NCBI GenBank assembly: GCA_018780035.1 | Contig: JADMKE010000003.1 | Coordinates: 210,753-274,752, forward strand | Direction: 5' to 3' | Length of the DNA: 64,000 nucleotides | Source of the DNA: Candidatus Sericytochromatia bacterium | GTDB lineage: Bacteria; Cyanobacteriota; Sericytochromatia; UBA7694 | In this document: positions 18,583 through 63,921 of the stretch, piece by piece | Layout: every line of letters begins with the position of its first letter | Numbering within the stretch: the stretch's first letter is position 1 | Notes under the pieces: generated by a model | Databases searched by the model: none | What the model was told of the DNA's origin: nothing | The model's input: the letters and a program-made list of their open reading frames with translations, nothing else | Program-made: the position numbers and the translations under genes

Positions 18583-18702
18583 CCAAACTAAATTTTGACA
18601 AAAAATAATCCATTCTTAATGTCTTCTTAAGTCAGCTTTGGGCACCCAGGCCGTATATCTATACTAAGACTGCAACCAATATTTGACCAAAACACAGAGA
18701 CC

Positions 18703-28258: not shown

Positions 28259-30043
28259 ATGAATATTAGTCAAGTTTTTGATCCCCGATTTACGCCTCCA
28301 CTCCATCTCGATACGGATCCACCACTGGCTACAGATGTTTTTTTAATTGTTTTAGATGCCCATTCTTCCATCCAAATTGCTTATCAATGGTGTTTGGCTT
28401 TTTTGCATCAGTTTACCCAATCCGATCAGGTAAGTTTATTGATACTGGCAGACCCTCTGCATATTGGTCATTTACTTGATCATTTAATGAACAAACTTGA
28501 ACAATTGGAATTGCCCAATTCCGCGCCAGATTTAGTGATCTGGTCAGAAGAAATTGCAGAAACAGATGAACCAGCTTTATATGCCCGCTGTTTGGCATAT
28601 TTGGATTGCAATTCAAGAGATGAAATTTCACTTCCATTACTCAAAGCTATTTTTATGAATAAGCAAGTGGTTTGTTTTAAAGGTAAAGCAACAGAAGAGT
28701 GGATAAAACCCGGATATGGGTATTTTTTAAATCACTTAACTGATACGGAAACGGCTTATCGTCAGGCGTTATTTGAGCTTTATCACCGTTTGCTCAAACT
28801 TTATCCGCGCAAACTGGCAAGCAATTATTTAGCAAAAAATCCACATTTTACTTTGCCGTTTGAGATCGAACTCAATATTCAATCATTCAGTCCCACAGAT
28901 TTTAGAACACAAACAATGGGGATCTATGAACAAGGCTATGTAAAAGAAGCTGCCATGCTTCTGGTCTATTGGGCCCAGAACCACCCGCTGGGTATCTCTG
29001 CGGTTATCGATAATAATAACTTCTGGTTGAAAATATTAAAAGATGCCAGATTATATGAACCATTAAAAATTATAAACAAACATATAAATGCAAATAATCC
29101 AGAAAATGAATTTCTTTTATTGGCAGAAATTCTTATTCAAGAAGGAAATATTGAAGAAGCGGTTCAAAATTATCACAAAGTATTAAGCATAAATCCTTAT
29201 GAAATGAATGCCAAAGTAGGATTTGAGAAAGCCAATTTAATCCTTAAGCGAAGATCAGAAATTCCGCCCATATTTCTAAATGGCATCGGTAACCCAGCAA
29301 GTGAGTATATTAGTATCTTACTCTCTCGGGGTCTGGATATCCCGCGAATGAGTATTTCATCGGGAATCGGAATCTTTGAACTGGTCGTTGATGTGTATTC
29401 TCTTGAAAAATTAGCGCAAGGGGGCTGCTTGGCCAAAGACCATTTATCGCCAAGTGATGTAAATCTTTTTGCGCTTACCCGTTATTTAGACAAAATGATT
29501 TTGGGGCTGAGAGATCCCCGTGGCAGTTTGGTTTCTTGTGTTGTCTATGAAAGTTTTTTGAACAGCGAAGACAAAGCGAGTAAAGACGAAAATCTATACA
29601 CTGCTCGCGCCATGTTTTCAGATAAAGCTGAGTGGATAGACCATTTTTTATCACTAAATTTTCATCAAAAATGCGATAAAATGATAGAAGATGGTACGTT
29701 TGAACATTATTTGAATGATGTTGTTAACTGGTTGGATGTTGCTCAATATTATCCTATTTTCATTTACACCTTTGAAGAGTTTAAACAGGATGAAATGGGG
29801 GTAATTCAAAATATTTTAAACTATTATGACCTCTCTTCAGATTATTTTCGATTTCCCTTTACACAGGCAGATCGCCAAGGTTCCGTCTTTAGCAGCACTC
29901 CTGATACGGCCTCTCCAAATTACACTTTGCGCCGGGGAAATCCCTATGAATGGCACAGTGTTTTGACACCTGCTCAATTAGAGAAAACCACTTCTCTCAT
30001 GCCCCATGGCCTCTGTAAGAAGATGGGGTGGTTAGAAATTTAA
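28259..30043 (+). CDS. Large fusion protein: N-terminal Rossmann-like/TPR-like region + C-terminal sulfotransferase-like domain
   Basis: The C-terminal half carries an RDPR (3'-phosphate-binding-like) motif and a terminal RRGNPYEWHSV resembling the sulfotransferase RKG..G.W motif. It is AT-rich and a paralogue of the next gene. Confidence 0.55.
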   Translation: MNISQVFDPRFTPPLHLDTDPPLATDVFLIVLDAHSSIQIAYQWCLAFLHQFTQSDQVSLLILADPLHIGHLLDHLMNKLEQLELPNSAPDLVIWSEEIAETDEPALYARCLAYLDCNSRDEISLPLLKAIFMNKQVVCFKGKATEEWIKPGYGYFLNHLTDTETAYRQALFELYHRLLKLYPRKLASNYLAKNPHFTLPFEIELNIQSFSPTDFRTQTMGIYEQGYVKEAAMLLVYWAQNHPLGISAVIDNNNFWLKILKDARLYEPLKIINKHINANNPENEFLLLAEILIQEGNIEEAVQNYHKVLSINPYEMNAKVGFEKANLILKRRSEIPPIFLNGIGNPASEYISILLSRGLDIPRMSISSGIGIFELVVDVYSLEKLAQGGCLAKDHLSPSDVNLFALTRYLDKMILGLRDPRGSLVSCVVYESFLNSEDKASKDENLYTARAMFSDKAEWIDHFLSLNFHQKCDKMIEDGTFEHYLNDVVNWLDVAQYYPIFIYTFEEFKQDEMGVIQNILNYYDLSSDYFRFPFTQADRQGSVFSSTPDTASPNYTLRRGNPYEWHSVLTPAQLEKTTSLMPHGLCKKMGWLEI

Positions 30044-31851
30044 TGACACAACAGTCACTTATTCAAGAAACTTCTGAATGGATTGAAAAATACCAACCTC
30101 TTTCTGTGCCCCCGATTGCAAAATGGGCAGAACAGTTCCAAAGTGTTTTTTTGGTTATTGACTCCTGTTTTGAATCCCTTGAATTGGCAGAACTGTGTCG
30201 CCAATTTCTTGAAACGCATCTGGAAAATAAGTCCACGGCACTCATCATCGCCCGAAGTGCGCGTGAAACAATGGATTTGACGATACCCATTCACACTTGT
30301 TTAATCCAAATTAATAATAGCCAAAATCCAACTGATTTTTTTAAGCTGCTTGCCAGTGTGCATGCCTTGATTTTGCCCAACTTAAGAGAAGAGATTCAAT
30401 CAGAGGCTCTTGCTGCCTTATTAATGAATCGTCCTGTGCTCTTGTATCAGATCCCCCAGACGCAATATGATTGGGGAGAAGGTCTTTTAATACCCACTCA
30501 GATCGGATTTAAAGGGCTCTTGAACAGCTTTATTTCGCGCAGAGAATTATTAAGACCCCGTCAGCTTTTGCTGGATGTTCCAAATCTTAAAGCCGCTGTC
30601 TTTGCTTCAGGATTATTGGCGTATTTTCCCAATCGACCCGATTTGGAAACCATTGAAGCCTATATGAACGCTGGATATTTTGAACAGGCAGGGGTTTTAG
30701 CCGTAACTTTGTTGCGCAATTTACATTGGTTAAATGAAGAGTGGCAGCCAGAAAAAGGGCTGAAAATTATGAAAGCCTGTCTTTTGGGGAAAAAATATTT
30801 TGAGGCAATTAAAATTGGTCGAAAAATACTTTCATTCATGCCTGAAAATAGTGCTTTGGCACTGTATTTGGCCGTCGCTTTTTGGGGGATAAAAGACTTT
30901 ATTCAGGCCCAACTATTTTTAGAGAGAAGTCTATCTGCTGAAGATAAAACAGAGACAAAGAAAGAATTTGAGAATATTATTTTAGTTGACGAATTAAATA
31001 TTAAAATAAATAAATCTATTTCAAAATGTCTTGAATTACCAATAATTATTTTTAACCCTATTTCCAGGTTGTCAGCGTCTCATTTTATCGCCCAAACCTT
31101 ATCTCAATCTTTATCATTGCCACTTGTTCATCTCTCTACTGGCTTGGAAATAGGAACTTCAAATACGCTTCATTTTGAACGTACAGCAGAGTTGATTTAT
31201 AAAAAGCAAGGTGCTCTGGCCTTTGACCGCTGGCCGGCAACAGAAACCAATCACTATTTTTTACTTAAATTTTTCAAAAGTATGGTTGTACATGTGCGAG
31301 ACCCACGCAGCATTTTGGTCTCTTTGGGTATTTACCTCCATCATCTCTTAGAGCTGGATAAAAAAGCAGAGCTTCCAACTCAGTTTCAGAGATCGCTCAA
31401 ATTGATTCATTGGGATCTGCGTTTGCGCAGTTTTTCAGCCATGGTTCCCGGCCCAAAACAGATAGAATATGGCTTGGAATCGGGTCTTTTCCAAGCTTAT
31501 TTAAATGAAATATTGGCTTGGCTAGAATTAGAAAAAACCTTTCCATCTAGCTTTAAAATCTTGATTACAAGCTATGAGCAATTGATAAAAAATCAGGCAT
31601 CTTACTTTAAACAAATCATTGATTTTTATCAAATTAACCCCGATTTTTTTGACTATCAGGTAGAATCAATTAATAGTTTGAATTCTGTTTTTGGTCCTAC
31701 TCCAAACCCTGATTCCCCCCATTATTTTTTTCGCAGGGGTGATCCAAATGAATGGACCCAATTTGTTTCTGAATCCCAAAAAAAGCAGATGACAAATGCA
31801 ATTCCCAATGCCTTGTTTGAACGCTTTGAATGGGATCCCGCGCCGAGATAA
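30043..31851 (+). CDS. Paralogous fusion protein with C-terminal sulfotransferase-like domain
   Basis: Motifs VHVRDPRSILVS and FFRRGDPNEWTQF match the upstream paralogue, and the N-terminal segments also align (SVFLVIDSCFESLE vs DVFLIVLDAHSSIQ). TAATG stop/start overlap. An alternative GTG start lies at 30028. Confidence 0.55.
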   Translation: MTQQSLIQETSEWIEKYQPLSVPPIAKWAEQFQSVFLVIDSCFESLELAELCRQFLETHLENKSTALIIARSARETMDLTIPIHTCLIQINNSQNPTDFFKLLASVHALILPNLREEIQSEALAALLMNRPVLLYQIPQTQYDWGEGLLIPTQIGFKGLLNSFISRRELLRPRQLLLDVPNLKAAVFASGLLAYFPNRPDLETIEAYMNAGYFEQAGVLAVTLLRNLHWLNEEWQPEKGLKIMKACLLGKKYFEAIKIGRKILSFMPENSALALYLAVAFWGIKDFIQAQLFLERSLSAEDKTETKKEFENIILVDELNIKINKSISKCLELPIIIFNPISRLSASHFIAQTLSQSLSLPLVHLSTGLEIGTSNTLHFERTAELIYKKQGALAFDRWPATETNHYFLLKFFKSMVVHVRDPRSILVSLGIYLHHLLELDKKAELPTQFQRSLKLIHWDLRLRSFSAMVPGPKQIEYGLESGLFQAYLNEILAWLELEKTFPSSFKILITSYEQLIKNQASYFKQIIDFYQINPDFFDYQVESINSLNSVFGPTPNPDSPHYFFRRGDPNEWTQFVSESQKKQMTNAIPNALFERFEWDPAPR

Positions 31852-50293: not shown

Positions 50294-51172
50294 TTAAGCC
50301 CCAAAATTGCATTTGCCCATTTCTTGGAGGCAATTGAACTCCATATTTTTCCCGGCCTGCAGAGACTCTGCGCGATTTTTAAGGGATTGAATTTCAAGCG
50401 GGCTCAAGCCTTTTGCCTTTAAAAACAGGTTTAATTCGCTCAATACTTGGCTTTGGGGCCGACAAAATGAGCGGGTTACCAAAATATCTTCAAGCAGTTC
50501 GCTGCGCAAGGACTTCAGTTCAGATGCAAAGAGTGGGGCCCATTGTTGCAGGCGCAATTGCTCTTGCCAAAGTTGCAGATGTAAACCACTGCCCAAATGG
50601 GTGCAACCGCCATAATCCCAGGTTTGGGCTGACCACTGTGGCCAATTGGTCGAATACTCACCCCAGGCCTTTTGTAGCAGGGCCATCAGCTGATCGTCGC
50701 TTGTTTCGGGGGTGAGTTTTGCCAATTTGGCAAATGTCGGGTAATGCAATGCCAGGATTAATTCGGTGCCTTCGGCCACCAATCGCGGCTTTAAACCGGG
50801 TGTAAGGGGCTCCAACCAGCTAAAATCGAGCTGTTTGCTCAACGGCCTGTTCCAAGCTGCTTGATGCAATTGACTCAAAGGCGGGGAGAGCTTGGGGCTC
50901 AGGTTGCGGGCAGATTGCAGGGATTTGTACCAATCGTCTTGGGTTTTGACTGCTTGAAACTGCTTGCGATAGCTTAGTAGCTCTGAATAAGCGATTGAAC
51001 CGACTATCTTTTTGAGTTTGTCGTCAGCCTCTAAAGGGGGATTGTTGCCCCAGGCCCAAGCAGAAAAAGTGGCGCCGAGACCCATCAGTCCCCAACAGCT
51101 CAAACCGAGTGTCAAACCTACCAAACCCACTGCGGGTCGAGCATGAGCCCGCAGCTTGATTCGGAATTCCAT
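50294..51172 (-). CDS. Hypothetical membrane-anchored periplasmic protein
   Basis: N-terminal TM/signal anchor. It lies 3 nt downstream of the transporter gene stop. Confidence 0.5.
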   Translation of the reverse strand: MEFRIKLRAHARPAVGLVGLTLGLSCWGLMGLGATFSAWAWGNNPPLEADDKLKKIVGSIAYSELLSYRKQFQAVKTQDDWYKSLQSARNLSPKLSPPLSQLHQAAWNRPLSKQLDFSWLEPLTPGLKPRLVAEGTELILALHYPTFAKLAKLTPETSDDQLMALLQKAWGEYSTNWPQWSAQTWDYGGCTHLGSGLHLQLWQEQLRLQQWAPLFASELKSLRSELLEDILVTRSFCRPQSQVLSELNLFLKAKGLSPLEIQSLKNRAESLQAGKNMEFNCLQEMGKCNFGA

Positions 51173-51175
51173 CCT

Positions 51176-52489
51176 TTAGGCTCCTCCTGCGGTTTTCTGT
51201 TCAGGCAAACGCCCTTCCAAACGACTGACCACCACCACAGCGGTAATATCACCAGTGACGTTCAGAACTGTGCGACACATATCCAAGAGGCGATCGACGC
51301 CATAGATAATGGCAATGCTCTCACCGGGCACGCCGAGCGAGATCAGAATGCTGACAATTAAAGGCAGCGAGCCTCCGGGCACGCCCGCTGTGCCCACTCC
51401 TGCCAAAATGGAGAGGAAGACCACCAATATCTGTTGCATCAAGTTGAGTTCCACCCCAAAACACTGGGCCAAGAAGAGCAAGGTAATGCCTTCAAACAGG
51501 GCTGTGCCATTCTGATTGGCGGTGCTGCCAACGGTCAAAACAAAGCGCGAAATATCTGAGGGCATGTGCAGCTCGTCTTGGGTCACACGCAGGGCAGTGG
51601 GCAAAGTGGCATTGCTGGAACTGGTTGAAAAGGCTGTCAGCATTACTTCGCGGATCGCCTTAAAAAAGACCTTGGGCGAAAAGCCTGCCAATTTGAGAAT
51701 GGCTGAATAGACAATAAATTGCTGGATCGCTAAAGCTGCCAGCACCACCAGCACGTAATTAAGCACCAGGTGTAAAATCGCAAAACCCGTATTGGCAACC
51801 AAAATAAACAAAAGCGCAGCCACCCCAAAAGGCGCCAGGGACATGCCAAAGCCAATCCCTTTCATCACAATTTCATAGACCCCTTCGAGAAAGGCTTTGA
51901 CTGGAGCCACTTTTTCGGGATCGGAGGCTGAGAGTGCCAGGCCCAGCACCACCGCAAAGAACATTACCGCCAGCAGGCCACCACCGGTATAGGTGGGATC
52001 GAAGGCCCTTGCCATGTCTTCGACCGGGTTTTTGGGAATCAGCGAAACCAGCAATTCACTCACGGTGCGGTCGGGAATATCTGCTGCTTTGGCCTGTAAA
52101 CCTGCTGCAGAGTCAGAAAATTTCTCAATTAAATATTGACGATCAGCGGCTTTGATTCCTTTGGCTGGTTGAACCAGATTAAACAAAGTCAAGCCTACAA
52201 TCACCGATATGCCCGAAGCCACCAGGGTATAGACCAATGTTTTGAGTCCAATCCTGCCAATTTTTTTCAAATCGCCAAGTTCAGCCACCCCCAGAATCAA
52301 GGCCGAAAGCAAGAGAGGAATAACCAACATAAAGATCATGCGCAAAAACAGATCGCCGATCGGCTTGATCCATTTAATGAGTTCAGCTACCGTTTCGGGG
52401 GAAAGGCCAAGCAGGTGTACCAGCGCACCGCCGAGTATCCCCACAATCATGCCAATAAAAATCCGGGTATGCAGGGGAATTGATTTCAT
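51176..52489 (-). CDS. Dicarboxylate/amino acid:cation symporter (DAACS, GltP/DctA-like)
   Basis: 437 aa with 8-10 TM segments and hairpin-loop regions, typical of the sodium:dicarboxylate symporter family. Confidence 0.8.
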   Translation of the reverse strand: MKSIPLHTRIFIGMIVGILGGALVHLLGLSPETVAELIKWIKPIGDLFLRMIFMLVIPLLLSALILGVAELGDLKKIGRIGLKTLVYTLVASGISVIVGLTLFNLVQPAKGIKAADRQYLIEKFSDSAAGLQAKAADIPDRTVSELLVSLIPKNPVEDMARAFDPTYTGGGLLAVMFFAVVLGLALSASDPEKVAPVKAFLEGVYEIVMKGIGFGMSLAPFGVAALLFILVANTGFAILHLVLNYVLVVLAALAIQQFIVYSAILKLAGFSPKVFFKAIREVMLTAFSTSSSNATLPTALRVTQDELHMPSDISRFVLTVGSTANQNGTALFEGITLLFLAQCFGVELNLMQQILVVFLSILAGVGTAGVPGGSLPLIVSILISLGVPGESIAIIYGVDRLLDMCRTVLNVTGDITAVVVVSRLEGRLPEQKTAGGA

Positions 52490-52642: not shown

Positions 52643-53485
52643 TTAATAAACGGGTTTAAAAAATTGCTGGGCCCGGATTGCCAGCTTTTGTGAACAGAGC
52701 AGGGCAAAAGGTTCGCTTTTGAGATAGATCTGAAAGTCCAGCTCTTGAAAAGACTGAGCCAATTGACTCAGGCCCGCCATCAAAATGGCTTGTTCTTCCA
52801 TGCCGTATTTGTCGCGGGGCAATAGTTTGCGTGCGGCACTGTGCACTTCGTCGGCGATCTGGGCTTTGACTTCGGCCATACGTGATTGTAAAAGGGCCTG
52901 TTGTTCTTGGCTCGCTTTTAACTCTTCGGCTGCAGAGGCATAGGCCTCCAGCATCCAGTAAAAAGGCACATCTTTGAGTTTGTTGAGCATGGCTTCACTC
53001 AGTTCCAATTGCCAGAGTCCAAGAAACTCTTCGAGTTCCAGGCAGTCTTCCCAGGCTTCTGGGCGTCCTTGAAAGAGAATGCCGCCTGTGAGGTCATCCC
53101 AGCGTTCTTGCAGCGCATCTTCCCAACTCAGGGCGTACATACCCGTACCCGATTCAAAGGTTGGACGCGTATCTCCTGAGGGTTCAGTCAAAAAATCGCC
53201 AAGTAATTGGTAGTCTTCGGGTTGAAAGTGCTCGCTGCTTGGCTCGGAGAATATGGAATAGTCATAACCTGTATCACGGTGAACATATTCATATTTTTGT
53301 CCATATTTAACTGTATGGGTTAATTCTGTTAGAACCTGATGGAAAAACAAGGTCTGGACAATTTCCAGCTCTTCGGTGCATTTGAGCCAAAAATGCTGGA
53401 GTTCACTTTGGTAAAGGAGTAGAAATTGATCACTCAGACCCGCAGTCATGTCCTGAAAGCGCATTTTTACCTCGCCTTTGTCCAA
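52643..53485 (-). CDS. Hypothetical acidic cytoplasmic protein
   Basis: 280 aa, Asp/Glu-rich, with no recognisable motifs. Confidence 0.45.
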   Translation of the reverse strand: MDKGEVKMRFQDMTAGLSDQFLLLYQSELQHFWLKCTEELEIVQTLFFHQVLTELTHTVKYGQKYEYVHRDTGYDYSIFSEPSSEHFQPEDYQLLGDFLTEPSGDTRPTFESGTGMYALSWEDALQERWDDLTGGILFQGRPEAWEDCLELEEFLGLWQLELSEAMLNKLKDVPFYWMLEAYASAAEELKASQEQQALLQSRMAEVKAQIADEVHSAARKLLPRDKYGMEEQAILMAGLSQLAQSFQELDFQIYLKSEPFALLCSQKLAIRAQQFFKPVY

Positions 53486-53554
53486 ATTTTTGGCCCAATT
53501 ATGTGTAATAAAACATCAGAATACAATTAGTATACATAATTGAAACAAAAATCT

Positions 53555-54736
53555 CTAGCGAACGTGCCAAAGAACCTTTAAAAATTCATCCCAATGGGTG
53601 CGTTGAGCAAAGACACTCTGCAGATAGTCAACGCGATCGGGATTGTCGGGTGCCAAAACTGAAATGGAGATTCCATTGGCCTCGGGATAATCAAACCGGT
53701 GCCAAGCGTGTAACAGGCTGGCCTGAGCAGTGGCTTCAACCTGGGCAGAGGTTTCTCGAATCTTGGCATCGGGCAGATTGAGTTTGAAGAGTTGGGCCAG
53801 ATGAATCAGATCTTTTTCGTCTTCAGCTTCTTCAAAATGCTGGGCTTGTTTCAAAGCCCATAAGATTTCAGTCTTATACTTCGGCAAGCCAGACATCAGA
53901 GCGATACTCCACTGGTCGACAGCCTTCATCAGCGCTTCAAAACGCTCATCCAGCACCACTGCTGAGCCTGTCCGCTCTTGGTTATAGCTGGCACTTAAGG
54001 CACTGAGAATTGCCATTTCTTCAGCTTGGATTTGGGGTTTGGCATTCAGAACTTTTAAAATTCGGTCGTATTCCAGGCCATCCCAATCGACAAATTCTTG
54101 GGAGTGAACCAAGGTTTTGGCAAAGCCCTGCCAAAGCGCTTCCACTTCAATTGAGGCCATATTGCAGCCATCATAGCCCACCACATCCCACATGCCCAAT
54201 TGGGGCAGAATCGCTTGCAATTCGTGGGGGTCGAGGGCATCTTGGCTGCTGCTGTCTTCCATAATATACCCCGGATGCCAATTCCAGCCATGGCCCCAAA
54301 AATAAAGGGCATAATGTTCAGCCGGATGGTTTTTACGCGCCCAAGTGACAAATTCAAGCAGGGTACGCGGATCGCCGAGGTTGCGCTCCCCCCAATTGGC
54401 CAAAGCCTGGATGGGAGTGGCCTTTAAACCAGGTAAGACCTCAAACAAGAGGGTCTCGCTCCACGTTGGGTTGGGGGCCCGATCCGCCAAGGCCACGACT
54501 TTGACCCGGCCATTGGAACCAGGGACTGCAAGCTCGTTCTCGAGATCTTTGACGATGTATTCATCCAGATCATTGTCGCCAGACATATACAGCAATACAG
54601 TCCAGGCAGCTTTGGGGGACCCGGTATTTTCTGAGGAAGGTGGCTGAGCCAAAGCTGGGCAGATACTTAAACACATGCAGTAGAGAAAAAGGACTGCGCT
54701 CCCAAATAACGGTAATTTTATGCTGTTGCGGGTCAT
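53555..54736 (-). CDS. Secreted clostripain-like cysteine peptidase (family C11)
   Basis: Signal peptide. His in YFWGHGWNWHPGY and Cys in VGYDGCNMASIE. The ATG overlaps the NRPS-PKS stop (TGATG). Confidence 0.65.
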   Translation of the reverse strand: MTRNSIKLPLFGSAVLFLYCMCLSICPALAQPPSSENTGSPKAAWTVLLYMSGDNDLDEYIVKDLENELAVPGSNGRVKVVALADRAPNPTWSETLLFEVLPGLKATPIQALANWGERNLGDPRTLLEFVTWARKNHPAEHYALYFWGHGWNWHPGYIMEDSSSQDALDPHELQAILPQLGMWDVVGYDGCNMASIEVEALWQGFAKTLVHSQEFVDWDGLEYDRILKVLNAKPQIQAEEMAILSALSASYNQERTGSAVVLDERFEALMKAVDQWSIALMSGLPKYKTEILWALKQAQHFEEAEDEKDLIHLAQLFKLNLPDAKIRETSAQVEATAQASLLHAWHRFDYPEANGISISVLAPDNPDRVDYLQSVFAQRTHWDEFLKVLWHVR

Positions 54737-57700
54737 CAATCAAGCCCAGATCCCTTCACGGGATTTTGCAGACTTCCACACAAACGGGCCAAGTCCATTG
54801 CTCCCTGACCTTCGAGCATAGAGTAGTGGTCGCCGGGCACCGTCAGCAATGTCAGCGGAGCCAAATAATCCCCCCAGCCCTTGCCTGGTCGGGAATCTGT
54901 CTGTGCCAAACCGGCTTCGGCCACGACCAAAGTGGCTGGCAAGTGAAGTGCTGTCGGTTTAAAGGTTCTAGCGGCGTGTAAATTGGCCTCAAAGACAGCA
55001 TAAAGTAATTCGCGCGTCTGTTTCCTGCTTGCTTGCCTGTTTTCCTGCCTGCTTTCAGGTCTATTTATTTGAGTGCTAGCAGATATGCTAGCATCGGCGC
55101 TAGCATGAATGATTTCTTCAGATAATCCCAACTTTTGCATCTCCAGATCAAAACGCATGCGCACCAGGGATTCTGCATGCACCCGACCCGGTGGGGGCAG
55201 GGGCAGGTCTATCAAGACCAAATGAGAGACAGCGCGGCCGCGTGCCAAGGCCTGACGTGCCATTTCGAATGCCACCAAGGCCCCAAACGACCAACCAGCG
55301 AGCAATAAAGGCCCCTCGGGTTGGACGTGCATGACTAAGTCCAAATAGGCGGCGGCCATGGCTTCCAAGCTCAAATGGGGACTCTGGCCCGTCAGACCTT
55401 GGGATTGCAGGGCAAAAAATGGACCCGATAAGTGGCGGGCCAGAGTTTGGAAGGGAAAAACAGTTCCCGAAATGGCATGAACACAGAAGAGGGTTTGTCC
55501 TGTGCCCTCACGACGCAGAGGCACCAGCAGTGACGGCACCCGTTCATTTTGCAAGGTTTCTGCCAATGAGGCCACCGTCGAACCCTGAAAGAGCAAAGCG
55601 GGAGAAACAGGCCTCTTTAGCGACTCCGCCAGACGTTCTCGCACCTGCAATGCGAGCAAGGAGTCGCCGCCGAGTTGCTGCCAACTCTCTTCTCTGCCTA
55701 TATTTGCGACGCCCAGGGCCTCACCCCAGATTTTTGCGATCTCTGACTCCAGGGGGCTTTGAGGCAAGTCTTCCGAAGGGATTTCACGGGCTTGAAGCAG
55801 GGGATGCGTGCCAGCAAGCGAAGTTTGCAAGTGGGATTTCGCTGTACTCAAGTATTGGCGGCTGAGACGAAGTAAATCAGTGGGTTTGAGGGGGCTAACG
55901 GCCAGATTTGGGTGTTTGAGGTTGTAAATCCAACTCAAACTGGCTTTGCCACTTTCCCGGTCGATGCCCTGTGCCAATAGCGCTGTCTGCAACTGTCTCA
56001 TGTGGTGAGGCAAAGTTGCCACTGCTTGCTTGGCCATGCCTCCCTCTTTCCAGGCTCCCCAGGCGATACTTTGGACAGGCAAACCCGCTTGCCAATTCGC
56101 CCCTGCCAAGGCGTTTAAAGCTGCGTTGGCAGCTGTATAGGCCCATTGACCAGGCTGACCGCTGAAACTGCTCAGGGCTGAACAGAAGAGAATCAAGCGG
56201 GGAGTCAGTTTTGATGTTTGCAAAGCCTGCAGCAGGTGTTTGGCCCCCAGCCATTTGGCAAAGACGGGCCAATCTTGGAGCCAATTTTGCAGCCCATCAG
56301 GGGACGTTTCTATCTCAGCCAAACTCTCCAATAGCCAATGCTGATCAGGGCTGCCTCCAGCGTGGAGCACCCCTGTCAGTTCTCCGGTTTGCGCTTGAAT
56401 TGCTGCCAGGGCCCGATCCCAACTCTGCCTGTCGGCCATATCCCCAGCAATCCAATTCACACTTGCCGCTCTTTCAAAAAGGGTTGCCAGATCCACTGGC
56501 GCCTCTCGACCCAAGAAAAACAGCTTTGATCCAGCTGGCAGGGCCTGCGCCAATTGGCCTCCAATTTCGCCACTCCCACCCGTGATCAAATACGTGCCCA
56601 TAGGCAAAGGCTCTGTTCTAACAGGCCCGTGTACAGGCTTGGGCAAAACTTGTGGCAAAATTTGCGGCAAAAGCTGGGGTTCCCAGAGCCAGCGGTTACG
56701 CAAAGCCAGTTCGGCATGAGCTTCATCTAACAGGGTTTTGAGTAATTCCTCAGACAGGGGCAATGAACCATCGGACTCCAGCCAGAGGCAATGCACAGCA
56801 GGCCTTTCACTCGGTAAAACTCTGGCAAGACCTAACAATAACGCCAAATCTGGGGCCAGATTCTGCTCTGCACCCGTTACAACCTGTACCGCTGGCATCA
56901 AAAAACAAAGCTGTGTCAAGCCGAGTTTTAACAGCTCAGCCAAACTTGCCAGGGCCCATTTGAGCAATGCGTCAGGGGGAGCGTCTGTTTGCCAGTTGCG
57001 GCAGTCAAACACAACTTTGATATGTTTCTCCTCGCCGAGTTTGAACGCTTGACCGGCAATCAGCCAAATCAAATTTTCGGTCTCGCGGGCGGCACTGTGG
57101 GGTATATCTGGAGCGGCTAAAGGTACTTTCCGCCGTTGCCATTCCAGAGAATAGAACCAGTTTTCCAAGTTCTGGCGCACAGGCAGTGCCCCAGCACCCT
57201 CTGACTCCGTGGGGCTGAACCAATAATTTTCTCTTTCAAAGGGTGTGCCGGGCAGGACCCGTTTTGCATAGCGCTGCTCAAACAGGACCTTGCGCTCCAG
57301 ACGAAAGCCCCTTTGCCACAGCTGTCCCAGGCAATTTAAAAAAGTGGTTCGGCTCTCAGAGGCTTCTGTGCCCAAGCCCCAAAGAGGTGTATATTCGCCC
57401 TTTCCACGCAATAAAGCACTCAGAGCCCGGCCAGGTCCCGTTTCGAGGGGCAAAAAAGTTTCCTGCTGATCAGTGAAAAGCAATTGATTTAAACTGCGCT
57501 TAAAGGGCACAGGTTCGAGGGTTTGGGCCCGCCAATAGTCTGGGTCGCTCAATTCTTTGACACTCAAAACTTGGCTACGCAGTGCAGAATACACCTGCCA
57601 TGTCCCTTTTTGCCAGGGTTGGCTGGAACAAAGTTGGCTGAGTTCGTCCAGAATCGGCTCCAGCAGCGGGTGATGCACAGCATGGGGAATGGGTAATTCA

Positions 57701-60700
57701 ATCCAACGCAATCCGGCCAAATGCAAAGCATCCCGCAGGGGATCGCGGGCAGCCAGTGGGCCAGCGACCGTGACCTGTTCTTCTGCATTGTCAGCGGCAA
57801 TACAAACCCCATCAGGCAAAATTGCCTTAACCCGTTCACAGGCGCCCTGTACGGCCCATGTAAAACCTGGCACGCTAGCAAAAAGCTCTCCCCGGCGGCA
57901 AACCAGTTCCAACATTTCAGGCAGGGCCAAATGGCCGCCCAGACACAATGCTGCATATTCACCAAAACTGTGACCGAGTAGCAGTGCAGGCTGTAACCCC
58001 AATGCCAACCAGGTCTGTCCCAGGGCATATGAAAGCAAGAAGATCAGTGGTTGCATCAAACGCGGATCTGCCAATTCGGCAGCGGAAAGCCCGCCCGAAG
58101 TTGATCCATACAGGGCGATTTTCAATCGCTCCGCCAATTCAAATCGGTGGGTCTGAATCAGTGCCAGGCAGGTTTCGATGCTTTGGGCGAAAACTGACAG
58201 CGATGCCATTTTCTCTGCCAATCCAGACACCTGACTGCCCAGACCAGGCAAAAGCCAAAGTAAAGGGGGGGGGAACTCCGAAGATTGGCCTTTTACCAAA
58301 CCCTGAACGGGCGCATTCGCCAGACTTTGAAGCAATTTCTGACCGAGATCTTCGCTGTCGTGTGCAGTGAAAGCCAGGCGCCAGGGAAAAGACTGCCTCC
58401 CGAGAGCAAGGTTTAAAGCCATTTCAGATATATTGATTGGCATTTGTTGAGACGCTAACCAGTCGATCCATCTATTTTGCAATTGCTGCAAAGCCCGCTC
58501 TGAGCGGGCAGAAAATAGAAAGAGCTCCGGTTGAGGTATGTAAGTCGTTTTTTCAGATTCAGACATGTGCTCCGCCCCTTGGGCCTCAGGTGCACCCGCT
58601 AAAATGGCATGGGCGTTGGTTCCACCTATCCCAAAGCTGCTGACTGCAGCGCAAAGCGGGCCTGATGTTTGAGATAAATCCTCAGCTAACCTAGCGGGAT
58701 AGACAGGTGCGTGCTGCCAGCTGATGCGCGGACTGGGCTGGGTAAATCCGGGTTGGGGTGGAATTTTTTTGTGCAAAAGCACCAGCAGCGCCTTGATCAG
58801 GCCCGCCACCCCTGCAGCGGCATCAAGATGGCCCAGGTTCGCTTTAAGCGAGCCGATGGCGGCATGGGGCGTGGCTTGCCCCTGCCTTTCTGTCCAGGCC
58901 TCGGTCAAGGCCTGAATTTCAACACTGTCCCCCAAAGCGGTGCCCGTGCCGTGGGCTTCGAGATAGCGAATCTGTGTGGGCCGGATGCCCGAACGGGCCA
59001 AGGCTTTGCGCAGCACCGCGACTTGACCTGCAATTCCAGGCGCAGTGAAACCCAGTTTTTGTTTGCCATCGTTGTTGATGGCCGAACTGAGGATTTGTCC
59101 CAAAATGAGATCACCGTCAGCCTGGGCTTGGGCCAAGGGTTTGAGCACCACCAGCGCCACGCCACTGCCACCGACGATTCCTGTGGCATCGGCTTCAAAG
59201 GGGCGACAGGCCCCATCAGCAGAATAAATCCCACCAGGCAAGTGAAGATAGCCTTGGGGATCGGGATCGAGGCTCACACCGCCTGCCAGGGCCAGTTCAC
59301 ACTCGCCCCTGCGCAGGCTTTCACAGGCCAAATGAACAGCCACCAAGGAGGTCGAACAGGCAGTCTGTACTGCCAGAGCAGGGCCGGTCAAATTGAGGTG
59401 GTAAGCCACCCGTGTGGCGAGATAATCTTTGTCATTGGCCAGCAGGGCCTGCATGGGATTAACGGCCTCTGTCAGATTGGCGCCCTGAATATTATGCCCC
59501 AGATGCATTAACAAATAGCGGCTGATCCCTGACCCCGCGAAGACCCCAAATGGCCGGGACTCTGAACAATCGCCATAACCGGCCTGTTCCAAGGCCTGCC
59601 AAGCAGTTTCCAGCATCAGGCGCTGCTGGGGATCCAATAGTCGGGCTTCGGCAGCAGAAAGCTGAAAGAGTTCGCGGTCAAAAGCTGCGATATCTGGGAG
59701 TACCCCAGTGATGGGCACATAGTGGGGATGATCGAGCTGCAGTTCAGACACCCCTTGGGACAATAGTTCTTCTCGGCTGAAGTGTTTTAAGCCGGTCTCT
59801 CCTTTGCAGAGCAATTCCCACAAGGCTTCCACTGAATCTGCCCCTGGAAAGCGACCAACCATCCCGATCACAGCAATTGGGGCATCTGATGCTAATGTGC
59901 TGGGCTTGGCCAGGGGCTGCGATGCTGCAGCGGTTTCTGTCGCCATATCCGGTTCTTGCAATTTCTGGGCCAATTGGCGCAGGGTTGGAGCTGCAAAGAG
60001 ATCCATCAATGTGAGAGGCATGCCAAATTCAGCCTCAATGCGGTATTGAGCTTCGACCAAAAGCAGTGAATGCAAGCCCTGGTCCATAAAATTTTGCTCG
60101 GGGTCGAGAGGCAAACCGCCGTTGAGATCTTGCAAGAGCTGATGCAGGCGCTTTTCGATTTGATTCAAACTGGCTGAACGTGTTTCAGCCTGGGGCAGCG
60201 GCAGTGCTTTGAGATCAAGTTTGCCATTTAAGGTCAGGGGCAGCGCAGGAACCCAGACAAAATGGTCTGGAATCCAAGCTGGGGGCAAAATAGCCTGCAG
60301 GGCCTGTCGCAAATCTGCCACTGTGGGCTTGGGGACTTCGTTCTCACCGATCAGATAGGCGATCAAAACATGCTGGCCCGGTCTCAGCTCGCGCAAGGCC
60401 ACGCGGGCATCTATGACCGCAGGCAGTTGTAATAGGGCGGCTTCAATTTCTGCCGCTTCCAAACGATAACCGCGAATTTTAAGCTGGGCATCGCGCCGGG
60501 CCAGGTAATGAATTCGGCCATCAAGATCTTGACGGGCATAATCCCCGCTAAAATAAACCCGCCCCAAGAACGGGTGCATTGAAAAGCGCTGCTTGGTCAA
60601 TTTGGGGTTATTAAAATAGCCCCGGGCCAGCCCTGCTCCAGTGACTGTGATTTCACCTGCAACACCTACAGGCACAGGACATAGATCTTTGCCGAGTAGG

Positions 60701-63285
60701 GCCAATCCCAGATCTTGCAAGGGGTGGCCAAGGGGGCTTTGTTTTCCAGCCGCCTGAACCATTTCTGGCAAGATCCGTTCAAAGGTCACAAAGACCGTGG
60801 TCTCGGTAATCCCATAGCTGTTATACACAGCGACCTGCTCACCAAAACAGGCAAACCAAGGCTTTAAACTCCCCAACTCCAATTTTTCACCGCTTAAGAT
60901 CAGCCAGCGCAAGGGTGGCAAAGGGGGAGCTGTTTGCAATGTGCTCTGCAAAACACCCTGCAAGGCGCGCAAAGCCGAAGGAGTCAGATTGAGGACTGTC
61001 ACAGGGGTTTCGATCAGGGTTTGCCAAAATTGTCTGCTGTCGCGGGCCAAAAGGCGGGGGATCAGCAAAAGTTGGGCCCCCGCATAAAAGGCCCCCCAAA
61101 TCTCCCAAACGGAATAATCAAAGGCCAGTGAGTGAAAGAGCACCCAGGTATCTTCGGGGCTGAGATCCAATTCGCGGGCCGCAGCGGGGAAGAGGCGCGC
61201 CACTTGAGCATGGGTAATTTCAACCCCGTTGGGCTCGCCGGTGCTGCCAGAGGTGAAGATCATGTATGCCAAGTCATCGGGGGAGATCGGCAAGTCCAGG
61301 TTGATTTCGTCGCCCATTTCGACTGGCGCTTGAAACAGGGCATGGGGATCGAGGCAATTCCAGGCCTGTTTCTGCGGGCTATCTGGCAATGTCTGTTGCA
61401 AAGTTGCTGCTGCCAATAAAAAATGGGGCTGGGCAAAGTTTAAGATTTTCGCTGCGCGCAGGGGGGGCTGGTCTTGGTCGATAGGCAGATAAAGTGCCCC
61501 TGCTTTGAGTATCGCCAAGAGACAAATCAGGGCCTCTGGGCCCACTTCAAGCCACACCGCAGCCCGCATACCCGGCTCCAGTCCCTGGCGGCGCAAGACT
61601 CTCGCCAACAGATTTGACCGCCGATTCAACTCACCATAGCTCATGGCTTGCCCTTGCCAGAGCAAGGCTGGGCGCTCAGGGGCCTGCGCTGCCTGGCGCT
61701 CCACAAATTGGTGAATCAACCCTTCAATGGGAATCTCAGCCAAGGGCGTGCCTGCTTTTAAGTTTAAGCTCTGTGCCTCGGGGAGCAAAAGTCGAATTTC
61801 GCTCAGGGGCTGCTCGGGCTGGGCCAATAATCGGGACAAGAGGCTGAGATAATCCCTCAAGATCTGTCTGAGCATGTCAGGCCCGAGTTGGGCCAAAGCA
61901 CTCGACAATCGCACCCGCAGTCGGCCAGGCTCCAAAGTCAGGGTCAAGGGAAAAGGGGGCGGTTGCTGGGGCAGATCTTTCCACTGCACCTCAAAATCCA
62001 GCGGGGGTATATTGAGTGGGCTGTTCTGAAAGACAAAATAGATTTCAGGCAGCGGGTGCTCACTTTTAGGCAAAGCTGCCACTGCTTTTTCGAAAGGCAA
62101 ATCCTGCCAGAGCAAATGCACTTGAAATTGCCTCGCATGTAGACCACAGTTTTGGGCAAAGTTCAATTCAGGCATCACTTCCAGGGGCAGCAGAAGGGTG
62201 TTGATCAGACAGCCGATTAGGTTTTCCAAACGCAGATCCGACCGCCCCGAAACCGGTGTGCCGATGATCATCCGCTCTTGAATGCCATAGCGCGAGAGCA
62301 AGACCGTCCAGGCTGTTAAACAAATCTGAAAAGGCGTCAGGGCTGTGGCTTTGCCAAAAGCCACAATCTGATCCCAGAGTGTTTCTGGCAGGTCTAATTC
62401 CACTTCCGCTGGGCCAGATTCACGCGGACAGGTTTCTCCTGGCAAGTCCAACCCCGTTGGAAACCCAGCCAAAGCTTGGCGATAAAAGGCCAGAGCCTGC
62501 TCAGACCAGGGAGTTTCATTGAATGCCTGCTGCGCCAAATCCAAGCCCGTAATCACCGGCAATGGCAGCTCAATTCCGTGATAAGCGGCCAGCAGTTCCC
62601 GCAACAGCACCCCTGTGGACCAGCCATCGGAAATCAGGTGGTGCAGTGACCAGGCCAAGATTCCCCTCTGCTCACCGAGAGGCCACCAACCCATACGCAT
62701 GAGCGGACCCTGTGACAGGTCAAAGGGCTGAGCACACCAGCTTTTGATTTCAGTGAGCGCTTGTGTCTCTGCGCTTTGGGCGTTATTTTGGGGCATAACC
62801 TCCAGTTGCAGCGCGGATTTGGGCAGGATCTCTTGGTAAGCTTTGCCTGCTATTTCGGGAAAAACCGTACGCAGCGCACTTTGGCGTTGGCCCAAAGTCT
62901 GTAAAGCCACTTGCAAGCGTTGTAAATCTAAAGGGCCAGTTATTTGACAGGCCCCGCTTAAATTGAGCAGATCGCTGTTGGGGTGCAATTTTTGCAGAAA
63001 CCACATGCGGCTTTGCGGGGGCGTCAGTGGGCCCGTTGTTTGGGAAATATTGGCTTGGCTGTTGTTGGTCTGTAAGGGGGGGCGTTGTTCCAATTGCAAC
63101 AGGGCCAATAGCTGTGTTTTTAAGCCACTTAAGGCTTCTCGCAGCGATTCGGAAATGGCTCCTTTGGGTGCGCTTAAACTGAGCTGCCCGTCTTTGATTC
63201 CCAGCAAAGCCCCGCTTTGGCGCAATTCAAGCAGCAGAGCGCTGGCCTCTAACCAGGCTGAATAATGACGTGGAAGCTCAGGCAT
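54736..63285 (-). CDS. Hybrid NRPS-PKS megasynthase, one NRPS module + one PKS module: C-A-T-KS-AT-KR-ACP-TE
   Basis: C domain HHLISDGWS. A domain FTSGSTGEPNG, NSYGITETT, YFSGDYARQDLDGRIHYLARRDAQLKIRGYRLE. T domain FMDQGLHSL. KS domain TACSTS, EAHGTGT, KANLGHL. AT domain GHSFGEYAA with a HAVH (HAFH-like) specificity region. KR domain TGGSGEIG...YTAANAALNAL. ACP LGGDSL. TE domain GWSFG...GDHYSML. Confidence 0.93.
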   Translation of the reverse strand: MPELPRHYSAWLEASALLLELRQSGALLGIKDGQLSLSAPKGAISESLREALSGLKTQLLALLQLEQRPPLQTNNSQANISQTTGPLTPPQSRMWFLQKLHPNSDLLNLSGACQITGPLDLQRLQVALQTLGQRQSALRTVFPEIAGKAYQEILPKSALQLEVMPQNNAQSAETQALTEIKSWCAQPFDLSQGPLMRMGWWPLGEQRGILAWSLHHLISDGWSTGVLLRELLAAYHGIELPLPVITGLDLAQQAFNETPWSEQALAFYRQALAGFPTGLDLPGETCPRESGPAEVELDLPETLWDQIVAFGKATALTPFQICLTAWTVLLSRYGIQERMIIGTPVSGRSDLRLENLIGCLINTLLLPLEVMPELNFAQNCGLHARQFQVHLLWQDLPFEKAVAALPKSEHPLPEIYFVFQNSPLNIPPLDFEVQWKDLPQQPPPFPLTLTLEPGRLRVRLSSALAQLGPDMLRQILRDYLSLLSRLLAQPEQPLSEIRLLLPEAQSLNLKAGTPLAEIPIEGLIHQFVERQAAQAPERPALLWQGQAMSYGELNRRSNLLARVLRRQGLEPGMRAAVWLEVGPEALICLLAILKAGALYLPIDQDQPPLRAAKILNFAQPHFLLAAATLQQTLPDSPQKQAWNCLDPHALFQAPVEMGDEINLDLPISPDDLAYMIFTSGSTGEPNGVEITHAQVARLFPAAARELDLSPEDTWVLFHSLAFDYSVWEIWGAFYAGAQLLLIPRLLARDSRQFWQTLIETPVTVLNLTPSALRALQGVLQSTLQTAPPLPPLRWLILSGEKLELGSLKPWFACFGEQVAVYNSYGITETTVFVTFERILPEMVQAAGKQSPLGHPLQDLGLALLGKDLCPVPVGVAGEITVTGAGLARGYFNNPKLTKQRFSMHPFLGRVYFSGDYARQDLDGRIHYLARRDAQLKIRGYRLEAAEIEAALLQLPAVIDARVALRELRPGQHVLIAYLIGENEVPKPTVADLRQALQAILPPAWIPDHFVWVPALPLTLNGKLDLKALPLPQAETRSASLNQIEKRLHQLLQDLNGGLPLDPEQNFMDQGLHSLLLVEAQYRIEAEFGMPLTLMDLFAAPTLRQLAQKLQEPDMATETAAASQPLAKPSTLASDAPIAVIGMVGRFPGADSVEALWELLCKGETGLKHFSREELLSQGVSELQLDHPHYVPITGVLPDIAAFDRELFQLSAAEARLLDPQQRLMLETAWQALEQAGYGDCSESRPFGVFAGSGISRYLLMHLGHNIQGANLTEAVNPMQALLANDKDYLATRVAYHLNLTGPALAVQTACSTSLVAVHLACESLRRGECELALAGGVSLDPDPQGYLHLPGGIYSADGACRPFEADATGIVGGSGVALVVLKPLAQAQADGDLILGQILSSAINNDGKQKLGFTAPGIAGQVAVLRKALARSGIRPTQIRYLEAHGTGTALGDSVEIQALTEAWTERQGQATPHAAIGSLKANLGHLDAAAGVAGLIKALLVLLHKKIPPQPGFTQPSPRISWQHAPVYPARLAEDLSQTSGPLCAAVSSFGIGGTNAHAILAGAPEAQGAEHMSESEKTTYIPQPELFLFSARSERALQQLQNRWIDWLASQQMPINISEMALNLALGRQSFPWRLAFTAHDSEDLGQKLLQSLANAPVQGLVKGQSSEFPPPLLWLLPGLGSQVSGLAEKMASLSVFAQSIETCLALIQTHRFELAERLKIALYGSTSGGLSAAELADPRLMQPLIFLLSYALGQTWLALGLQPALLLGHSFGEYAALCLGGHLALPEMLELVCRRGELFASVPGFTWAVQGACERVKAILPDGVCIAADNAEEQVTVAGPLAARDPLRDALHLAGLRWIELPIPHAVHHPLLEPILDELSQLCSSQPWQKGTWQVYSALRSQVLSVKELSDPDYWRAQTLEPVPFKRSLNQLLFTDQQETFLPLETGPGRALSALLRGKGEYTPLWGLGTEASESRTTFLNCLGQLWQRGFRLERKVLFEQRYAKRVLPGTPFERENYWFSPTESEGAGALPVRQNLENWFYSLEWQRRKVPLAAPDIPHSAARETENLIWLIAGQAFKLGEEKHIKVVFDCRNWQTDAPPDALLKWALASLAELLKLGLTQLCFLMPAVQVVTGAEQNLAPDLALLLGLARVLPSERPAVHCLWLESDGSLPLSEELLKTLLDEAHAELALRNRWLWEPQLLPQILPQVLPKPVHGPVRTEPLPMGTYLITGGSGEIGGQLAQALPAGSKLFFLGREAPVDLATLFERAASVNWIAGDMADRQSWDRALAAIQAQTGELTGVLHAGGSPDQHWLLESLAEIETSPDGLQNWLQDWPVFAKWLGAKHLLQALQTSKLTPRLILFCSALSSFSGQPGQWAYTAANAALNALAGANWQAGLPVQSIAWGAWKEGGMAKQAVATLPHHMRQLQTALLAQGIDRESGKASLSWIYNLKHPNLAVSPLKPTDLLRLSRQYLSTAKSHLQTSLAGTHPLLQAREIPSEDLPQSPLESEIAKIWGEALGVANIGREESWQQLGGDSLLALQVRERLAESLKRPVSPALLFQGSTVASLAETLQNERVPSLLVPLRREGTGQTLFCVHAISGTVFPFQTLARHLSGPFFALQSQGLTGQSPHLSLEAMAAAYLDLVMHVQPEGPLLLAGWSFGALVAFEMARQALARGRAVSHLVLIDLPLPPPGRVHAESLVRMRFDLEMQKLGLSEEIIHASADASISASTQINRPESRQENRQASRKQTRELLYAVFEANLHAARTFKPTALHLPATLVVAEAGLAQTDSRPGKGWGDYLAPLTLLTVPGDHYSMLEGQGAMDLARLCGSLQNPVKGSGLD

Positions 63286-63312
63286 GAAAAAACGACTTTC
63301 CCCAGTTAAAAT

Positions 63313-63801
63313 TTAACGCAGGACTGCAATTAGAATATGCACAGCCAGGGCCAAATTAACCAGCAGTCCCCCCGCGAATGCCAATGAGCGCCAGGGTTGT
63401 AAGCCTTTGAGATAAAAGAAGGTATGGCCCAAACGGGCGGCTGTAAACACCCCAAAATAGACGGGGGCCAAGCCATCTGCCGCATGCAGAAACAATGCAG
63501 CCCAGGCCAAGCCCAAAAAGATTGGAATATTTTCCAAGTCGTTGCGGTAGGCATTGCTGGCACGGATATAGTCAGGATGCTCGGCTTCGGCTTGGGCCGT
63601 TTTACCAATCAGAGCCGCATCTTCGGGATTGGTATAGACCTTGTTTTTGTTGCGAACCAACCCTTGGGTGAGGCCAATGGCAAACATTTTGAAAAAGAGC
63701 ACAGCTGTGCTGACGCCCAGTACTTTGAGAGCCAGGGGATGGAGTCCCATTGTCTGTGTGAGCGTTTGAGAGAGCGTTTGGGCCAGTTCAGGGGTGGGCA
63801 T
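63313..63801 (-). CDS. MAPEG-family membrane protein (microsomal GST / membrane-associated eicosanoid-glutathione metabolism superfamily)
   Basis: Four TM helices and the MAPEG signature R..NAYRNDLENIPIFL. An AAGGA RBS lies 8 nt upstream of the ATG at 63801. Confidence 0.6.
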   Translation of the reverse strand: MPTPELAQTLSQTLTQTMGLHPLALKVLGVSTAVLFFKMFAIGLTQGLVRNKNKVYTNPEDAALIGKTAQAEAEHPDYIRASNAYRNDLENIPIFLGLAWAALFLHAADGLAPVYFGVFTAARLGHTFFYLKGLQPWRSLAFAGGLLVNLALAVHILIAVLR

Positions 63802-63921
63802 GGTCATTATCCTTGTATGGGGCTGAATGGCTTCATTATAGCGGGCTGAAGGAGCAAAGCCCAAATAGGAGAGACTTTCACCCGTTGATTTTGTCAGGGG
63901 CCCTGAAAGATAATTAAATCT

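Follow-up and report, generated by a model that had tools for sequence, protein, structure and literature searches.

Gene content of the locus

Sericytochromatia are the non-photosynthetic sister group of cyanobacteria. A 64,000-nucleotide stretch of a Candidatus Sericytochromatia genome (assembly GCA_018780035.1, contig JADMKE010000003.1, positions 210,753 to 274,752; hereafter the window) carries six co-oriented open reading frames (ORFs) on the minus strand between 50.3 and 63.9 kb, as given by an ORF listing. In their order on that strand they encode a MAPEG-family membrane protein, a hybrid nonribosomal peptide synthetase (NRPS)-polyketide synthase (PKS), a C11-family peptidase, a protein of 273 amino acids (aa), an SDF-family transporter and a 292-aa protein (Table 1). 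Genes for PBP1, GGDEF and M23 proteins lie beyond the last of them on the opposite strand. An earlier annotation made from the letters alone (the sequence-only reading) had placed these genes at positions that agreed with the ORF listing, and the neighbours it had named, a MAPEG protein upstream and an acidic protein and a DAACS transporter downstream on the same strand, were recovered by Pfam and by a calculated pI of 4.5.

Two start codons were revised. The MAPEG ORF spans 63313-63864, and its likely ATG at 63801 yields the same 162-aa product as the gene call on an identical public contig; the gap from this gene to the synthetase is 27 nt in the window. For the C11 gene the ORF lister gave a TTG at 54739, and an ATG at 54736 shares its A with the synthetase stop codon TGA to form the overlap TGATG.

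Table 1 Genes, synthetase domains and other features of the locus. Positions refer to the window unless a locus label is given.
Feature	Position	Strand	Details
MAPEG gene	63313..63801	−	162 aa; PF01124
Hybrid NRPS-PKS synthetase	54736..63285	−	2849 aa; Pfam domain table, translation, eight aligned orthologues
TubC_N-type docking domain	63094..63240	−	aa 16-64; PF18563, 35.6 bits against a cut-off of 26
Condensation domain, predicted LCL elongation type	61774..63042	−	aa 82-504; motif HHLISDG
Adenylation domain	60220..61701	−	aa 529-1022; code DYWNISSVFK; P-loop TSGSTGEPNG
Peptidyl carrier domain (T)	59965..60147	−	aa 1047-1107; PF00550; GLHSL serine
Ketosynthase	58744..59883	−	aa 1135-1514; PF00109 and PF02801; Cys TACSTS, His EAHGTGT, His NLGHL
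Acyltransferase	57451..58257	−	aa 1677-1945; PF00698; GHSFGE, HAVH
Ketoreductase	56044..56598	−	aa 2230-2414; PF08659; GGSGEIG, Lys, Ser, Tyr (YTAAN)
Acyl carrier protein domain	55546..55770	−	~aa 2506-2580; second PP-binding stretch; GGDSL serine
Thioesterase	54739..55494	−	aa 2598-2849; PF00975, 99.5 bits; GWSFG Ser, Asp, GDHY His
C11 peptidase gene	53555..54736	−	393 aa; PF03415
Intergenic block after the C11 stop	53465..53554	−	weak hairpin/T-run and promoter-like TAGAGA-17-TATACT
Acidic cytoplasmic protein	52643..53464	−	273 aa; pI 4.5; no Pfam or NCBIfam match
SDF/DAACS-family transporter	51176..52489	−	437 aa; PF00375, 360 bits
292-aa protein	50294..51172	−	hydrophobic N-terminus; last gene of the same-strand block
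Cystatin-like lipoprotein	L001:3157-3564; L002:8889-9308; L003:8961-9368	− (L001)	

A catalytically intact hybrid predicted to end its chain in a statine-type unit

Pfam resolved the synthetase into a docking domain (dock) followed by condensation (C), adenylation (A), peptidyl carrier (T), ketosynthase (KS), acyltransferase (AT), ketoreductase (KR), acyl carrier protein (ACP) and thioesterase (TE) domains, that is, dock-C-A-T-KS-AT-KR-ACP-TE. The Condensation, AMP-binding, AMP-binding_C, two PP-binding, N- and C-terminal KS, Acyl_transf_1, KR and Thioesterase matches were all far over their cut-offs, and no dehydratase (DH) or enoylreductase (ER) domain was found in the synthetase at E <= 0.01. 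The C-A-T-KS-AT-KR-ACP-TE order without DH or ER proposed from the letters was thereby confirmed; each domain on that list was recovered, but the TubC_N dock at residues 16-64 had been overlooked.

Motif reading showed that the active sites are intact, including the KR Tyr and the Ser-Asp-His triad of the TE. The A domain contains NGK and the A4 string FDYSVWEIW, the latter at residue 722 and correctly picked out before. In the KR, the A-type Trp is missing and the LDD motif is degenerate (SPDQ). Catalytic motifs were kept in eight orthologues and in the L047 synthetase, with the single exception of the P0007 AT, which has HLVH and not HAVH; those of the TE were invariant across eight orthologues. 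In a domain-by-domain comparison, nine of nine domains retained 37-70% identity to the diverged lineages described below, whereas the linkers retained 0-35%. The synthetase thus reads as an intact, uncharacterised hybrid of a well-known kind.

The A-domain specificity code was extracted from an alignment with four GrsB A domains, in which the same columns recover DVGEIGSIDK, the published ornithine code of GrsB. The window synthetase gave DYWNISSVFK, with Asp235 and Lys517 present; the code is identical in lineage C and has Ser at position 278 in lineage B. The nearest solved relatives of the pocket region were CytC1 (115 bits), which activates valine and 2-aminobutyrate, and Thr1 (104 bits), which activates threonine (PMC11253843). 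Because the pocket is nearest to these two enzymes, our best guess for the substrate is a small, C4-size L-amino acid. A glycine-type assignment through a 504-bit match to LgrA was dropped, as that score was the sum of two A-domain matches (232 and 270 bits). The P-loop reads TSGSTGEPNG (window 61225-61254, aa 678-687) and ends in QPNG in lineage C, the usual form being TSGxTGxPKG.

The AT is probably malonyl-specific: its nearest solved relatives in the alignment (11sz and 8xjy) carry HAFH, and CurL (4mz0) was among the top matches. Placing a KR-containing PKS module after an NRPS module is an accepted route to 3-hydroxy-4-amino units, and such pairs build the statine-type units in the didemnin, burkholdac, hapalosin, thalassospiramide and nosperin clusters (PMC12081711). 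The window protein contains every element of such a pair, namely an A domain and a T domain with its Ser, a KS and an AT, and a KR unaccompanied by DH or ER. Because the catalytic motifs are intact and DH and ER are absent, a 4-amino-3-hydroxy-acid (statine-type) unit is expected at the end of the chain. The same unit had been predicted from the letters, reasonably so, as this is the standard reading of NRPS-PKS(KR) pairs (PMC12081711).

A predicted elongation-type C domain behind a conserved dock

The sequence-only reading had taken the C domain for a starter-type domain adding an N-acyl cap. Among solved structures, the domain scored 138-140 bits to the LCL elongation domains 5u89 and TycC (2jgp) and 117-125 bits to the C domains of teixobactin Txo1/Txo2, whereas the starter C domains of RzmA and CDA-C1 gave 42 and 32 bits, and 75 bits were reached with a surfactin synthetase domain of 461 aa that we take to be the starter C domain of SrfA-A. 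The same preference was seen within GrsB, where three LCL domains scored 132-140 bits and the DCL domain 85 bits. A TubC_N docking domain occupies residues 16-64 directly ahead of the C domain and is conserved in all orthologues, and a match to the EpoB structure 5t7z spans residues 15-380, corresponding to the dock together with the C-like domain. Identity to the diverged lineages was 41-57% for the dock and 47-57% for the C domain, as compared with 0-21% for the linker beside the dock; because both domains are conserved while linkers diverge, they are under selection and are no relics. On these scores the C domain is predicted to be of the LCL elongation type and not a starter domain, and the postulated N-acyl cap, which depended on a starter domain, is not supported.

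Docking domains of the TubC/EpoB type at the N-terminus mediate hand-over between subunits from an upstream partner (PMC6195595). An LCL-type C domain behind such a dock would make this a non-initiating, chain-terminating module whose donor sits on the carrier domain of another protein, and the donor is probably handed over in trans. When each synthetase domain was used as a tblastn query against the 64-kb window, only self-matches were returned, and no other NRPS or PKS gene was found within ~54 kb downstream or 10 kb upstream of the synthetase.

MAPEG is the neighbour shared by all synthetase lineages

Synthetase orthologues were sorted into three lineages, A, B and C. Clade A (72-100% synthetase identity) comprises the window and loci L001, L002/L008 (a Blackallbacteria metagenome-assembled genome, MAG), L003/L009 (a Sericytochromatia MAG), L006, L007 and L050. 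Wherever the contig suffices, the order in this clade is MAPEG-synthetase-C11-273aa-SDF-292aa, and shorter loci agree as far as they could be read; the flanks are syntenic as well, with PBP1, GGDEF and M23 genes on one side and UvrB and TatA genes on the other. Lineage B (P0007 and L005/L011; 48% identity), a Blackallbacteria CG17 genome as judged from its MAPEG protein, has the order MAPEG-synthetase-MDR/crotonyl-CoA reductase (CCR)-like reductase, and lineage C (L047; 55% identity) the order MAPEG-synthetase-Tll0287-like gene. The MAPEG gene directly precedes the synthetase in L047 and L005, where its products are 69% and 63% identical to the window protein, and the spacing between the two genes is 15-27 nt across the lineages. 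It is the only neighbour gene conserved in all three. No further flanking gene was common to lineages B and C, each of which has a 167-aa GNAT protein, the two being unrelated.

The MAPEG protein matched PF01124 with 88 bits and aligned over its full length with human mPGES-1 (4al0) and MGST1 (E ~9e-15). Comparison with 4al0 and 5i9k showed conservation of VR, RNDxE, HTxxY and R-S, which we take to be the glutathione-site residues of mPGES-1. A genome scan with the MAPEG protein returned five loci; the copy in UBA7694 (56% identity) has no adjoining synthetase, nor does the HGW-Melainabacteria-1 homologue (63% identity). As MAPEG homologues thus exist apart from the synthetase, the pairing is specific to synthetase-carrying genomes. 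Comparative genomics indicates that MAPEG and the synthetase form an evolutionarily conserved two-gene functional unit, and it is solely from the conserved adjacency that we infer a role for MAPEG together with the synthetase.

A metagenome scan with the synthetase alignment yielded 33 loci, among which the single orthologue, L011, is a duplicate of L005. The others showed ~22-38% identity, and the eight longest that were examined are ordinary multi-module NRPSs. MAPEG or C11 genes near synthetase-like genes were found in none of the 33. The searchable literature returned no paper describing the MAPEG-synthetase pair, and searches for biosynthetic gene clusters of Sericytochromatia, for MAPEG proteins with NRPS or PKS genes and for clostripain peptidases with biosynthetic gene clusters found nothing relevant.

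The lineage B locus, the most diverged among the orthologous loci, has neighbours of its own (L005:4879-8988 and 18225-19403). The MDR/CCR-like gene follows the synthetase, and genes for a CN-hydrolase, a class III aminotransferase, a biotin carboxylase and a biotin carboxyl carrier protein stand before it on the opposite strand; in lineage B these genes may provide precursors or act in product tailoring.

The C11 peptidase and other neighbours restricted to clade A

The peptidase encoded after the synthetase matched PF03415 with 88 bits against a cut-off of 25.8. In an alignment with solved C11 enzymes, the His of its WGHGW motif matches WSHG.GW and the Cys of YDGCNM matches FDACYM, and its signal peptide ends in CPALA/QPP, so that an active, secreted enzyme is predicted. 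The TGATG overlap had been noted from the letters and proved real; it occurs at four of the five clade A junctions read (the window and three related genomes), and the fifth has a 5-nt gap.

The compact C11 subfamily to which this protein belongs (~390 aa, 45-60% identity) counts more than 1400 homologues from Anaerolineales, Phycisphaerae and other groups. No comparable synthetase was present in any of the four genomic contexts examined for C11 homologues of 50-55% identity. Conversely, a C11 gene adjoins the synthetase only in clade A and is absent beside the orthologous synthetases of lineages B and C. As clade A is syntenic throughout, the linkage within it carries no independent weight. 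Gene-level GC content and GC at third codon positions (GC3) gave no sign of a foreign origin of the C11 gene. By this comparison the peptidase is a lineage-specific neighbour and not a conserved pathway component. Near one 53%-identical C11 homologue (L051:4059-9216) lie genes for a free-standing AMP-binding enzyme, a GAPDH-like reductase and a B12/radical-SAM enzyme, together with an 82-aa ORF; these form another small biosynthetic context, unrelated to the window synthetase.

The block between the C11 stop codon and the next gene contains TGTATACTAATTGTATTC and the promoter-like TAGAGA-17-TATACT. Its first ~50 nt past the stop are near-identical in the window, L002 and L003, where the flanking proteins are only 72-88% identical. 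Because this near-invariant block carries a promoter-like match, a separate transcription unit comprising the 273-aa, SDF and 292-aa genes probably begins there; matches to promoter and terminator consensus sequences were not enriched over shuffled sequence. The 273-aa protein and the SDF transporter occur only in clade A loci. The former had no Pfam or NCBIfam match, is one of a small family with 45 representatives and has an AlphaFold model with a pLDDT of 94.9 that matched no fold in the PDB. The nearest NCBIfam model for the transporter is GltP-like, below the model cut-off, and the 292-aa protein had no family match in Pfam or NCBIfam.

Clade A loci also carry, divergently upstream of MAPEG, a gene for a cystatin-like lipoprotein of 135-139 aa with the lipobox LSAC and the canonical cystatin loop QVVAG. 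Three orthologues matched Pfam Cystatin at E-values of 6e-4 to 6e-3, below the cut-off, and a profile search of the PDB placed cystatins at three of six weak matches (ranks 1, 4 and 5; E 0.13-1.5). Neither lineages B and C nor the other C11 contexts examined have the gene. From these features the lipoprotein is a putative inhibitor, and a more plausible one than the synthetase product. In the window's organism the gene lies ~5.9 kb upstream of MAPEG, past the window end, and the interval holds three genes (L001:3613-9307) for proteins of 890, 538 and 470 aa that are an insertion relative to L002, L003, L006 and L007; the 470-aa protein is a PQQ-like beta-propeller.

Other features of the window

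A low-GC island at 28259-31851 (38.6% against ~51%) contains two paralogous ORFs side by side (594 and 607 aa); both have a C-terminal sulfotransferase domain, and the first has an additional weak TPR match. They are followed by genes for a methyltransferase, a PEP-utilising/PPDK_N enzyme, an ABC exporter and glycosyltransferases, and the island and these genes may form a separate modification or glycan cluster. An Rfam scan of the window gave zero matches.

Proposed pathway and its alternatives

In the pathway that we propose, the domain set and motifs are those observed in the protein, and the donor, substrate and product are what we infer from them. The conserved TubC-type dock would recruit a carrier-protein-bound donor from a protein encoded elsewhere, and the LCL-type C domain would couple this donor with a small L-amino acid of C4 size. 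The KS would then extend the chain with malonate loaded by the AT, and the KR would reduce the beta-ketone. Finally, the Ser-Asp-His TE would release a product whose terminal unit is a 4-amino-3-hydroxy acid, or a lactone or lactam formed from that unit; MAPEG would most likely tailor, detoxify or handle this product at the membrane. On balance, we lean towards this explanation as a whole, in which the synthetase is an orphan, catalytically intact, chain-terminating NRPS-PKS module of a Sericytochromatia (Blackallbacteria-like) bacterium. A more specific proposal seems rather improbable to us, namely that MAPEG, as a predicted glutathione-dependent enzyme, conjugates or isomerises a lipophilic amino-hydroxy acid or a reactive lactone, and that the clade A system is additionally wired to C11 and the cystatin-like lipoprotein. 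If true, it would be the first link of MAPEG enzymes to NRPS or PKS biosynthesis.

Several observations weigh against the pathway as proposed. Foremost is the missing donor: no partner gene that could supply it was present in the loci read, which in lineages A and B extended as far as 10 kb to either side of the synthetase and in lineage C just ~0.7 kb upstream and 1.6 kb downstream. The trans partner is thus postulated and would be unlinked if it exists. The LCL call compares scores against a limited number of solved or known domains and does not draw on a curated phylogeny. Within the A domain, the code has no exact match among known codes, and the atypical P-loop TSGSTG(E/Q)PNG, in which EPNG replaces xPKG, is conserved in all orthologues. 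As to MAPEG, homologues of 56-63% identity occur in genomes without the synthetase, and common ancestry within one class might explain part of its adjacency. The C11 gene, to which the pathway assigns no part, is likely co-transcribed with the synthetase in clade A.

The absence of a partner NRPS or PKS from every locus read would fit a self-contained lipo-amino-acid synthetase, in which primary metabolism would provide the LCL-like C domain with a fatty acyl-ACP or acyl-CoA, the dock would serve dimerisation or ACP recruitment only, and MAPEG would handle the resulting N-acyl-4-amino-3-hydroxy acid lipid. The C domain does stand at the N-terminus, MAPEG is conserved and membrane-embedded in a family that acts on lipophilic substrates, and EpoB-type docks, as matched here over residues 15-380 (5t7z), accept from an ACP. 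However, the C domain scored far lower against lipo-initiation domains (32-75 bits) than against LCL domains (138-140 bits), and neither a fatty acyl-AMP ligase (FAAL) nor an ACP gene is linked; we regard this account as unlikely. The missing partner would also be explained by an iterative, self-feeding module, in which the C domain of a PKS-type homodimer condenses two aminoacyl units from its own A domain, ahead of extension by the KS, to give a free-amine dipeptidyl-hydroxy acid. Single-module NRPSs with such docking domains can iterate (PMC6195595), and an LCL-type C domain expects an L-aminoacyl donor. Yet the last domain of the protein is a TE, and it offers the dock no T domain with a C-terminal docking tail to bind. 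To our knowledge, iterative behaviour has no precedent in a hybrid ending in KS-AT-KR-ACP-TE, which also counts against the idea, and we give it the slimmest of chances.

Two further accounts give the C11 peptidase a role. In the interpretation offered by the sequence-only reading, a self-contained synthetase with a starter C domain makes an N-acyl statine-like inhibitor that is paired with the co-translated peptidase for self-protection or timed activation. The TGATG junction in the window and three related genomes, the predicted activity and secretion of C11 and the gamma-amino-beta-hydroxy unit that follows from the domain logic all speak for it. Nevertheless, the pairing is confined to one syntenic clade, in which the linkage lacks independent weight, and in the two diverged lineages C11 is absent and the position after the synthetase is taken by the MDR/CCR-like reductase (B) or the Tll0287-like gene (C). 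The subfamily of more than 1400 members, with four other contexts devoid of such a synthetase, and the LCL-like C domain with its dock argue against it as well. Moreover, statine is a warhead for aspartic proteases (PMC12081711), and because C11 is a Cys/His peptidase of clan CD, the proposed match of inhibitor and target is weak. We consider this pairing very unlikely, and the earlier interpretation is supported in part: its structural claims hold and the predicted hydroxy-acid unit is reasonable, and its starter domain and inhibitor-protease pairing find no support.

Alternatively, by analogy with colibactin and xenocoumacin, C11 might be a periplasmic maturation peptidase of the prodrug type that trims an exported clade A product. 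It is probably co-transcribed, predicted to be secreted and encoded directly after the synthetase, and a peptide donor would leave a cleavable amide. Known prodrug systems use an N-acyl-D-Asn motif, an Asn-specific A domain with an epimerization (E) domain in the starter module, and a membrane-bound S12 peptidase. Here the module has no E domain, the code DYWNISSVFK is not Asn-like, the peptidase is a C11 enzyme where the known activating enzymes are membrane-anchored S12 peptidases, and C11 is not conserved with the synthetase, all of which makes a maturation role highly doubtful.

If expressed, the proposed orphan pathway would be among the first natural-product pathways described from Sericytochromatia, and a compact one, with one synthetase gene and one small membrane gene. 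Its points of note are the missing donor and the MAPEG pairing, and a synthetase consistently paired with an mPGES-1/MGST1-like protein may indicate a new step of tailoring or self-protection. The value of the locus thus lies in an orphan cluster and not in a new regulatory principle, the protease-inhibitor idea being unsupported.

Comparison with known systems

The peptidase shares with PmC11-like clostripain-family enzymes the Pfam match, the His/Cys dyad and a secretion signal, and differs from them in belonging to the compact and widespread ~390-aa subfamily. The A domain has FD(F/Y)SVWEIWGA and YGITETTV in common with CytC1 and Thr1 and agrees with CytC1 at seven of ten code positions. 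Those two are free-standing A (A-T) enzymes of halogenation pathways, whereas the A domain of the window forms part of a module and shows Tyr at position 236 together with Ser at 301 and 322. As in the TubC, EpoB and rhabdopeptide systems, a TubC_N domain directly precedes the C domain in the window synthetase and in all orthologues, but the neighbourhood encodes no upstream subunit bearing a C-terminal docking tail. The MAPEG protein resembles human mPGES-1 and MGST1 in its full-length alignment and in RNDxE, HTxxY and R-S; it is, however, bacterial and paired with an assembly-line synthetase, and its glutathione-dependent activity is a prediction. The didemnin-type NRPS-PKS(KR) pairs share the domain logic, C-A-T being likewise followed by KS-AT-KR-ACP without DH or ER. 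In contrast to those clusters, the window locus contains no other assembly-line gene in at least 54 kb downstream or 10 kb upstream, the pair forms a single stand-alone gene fused to a TE, its conserved partner is a MAPEG protein, and the host is an uncultured Sericytochromatia bacterium.

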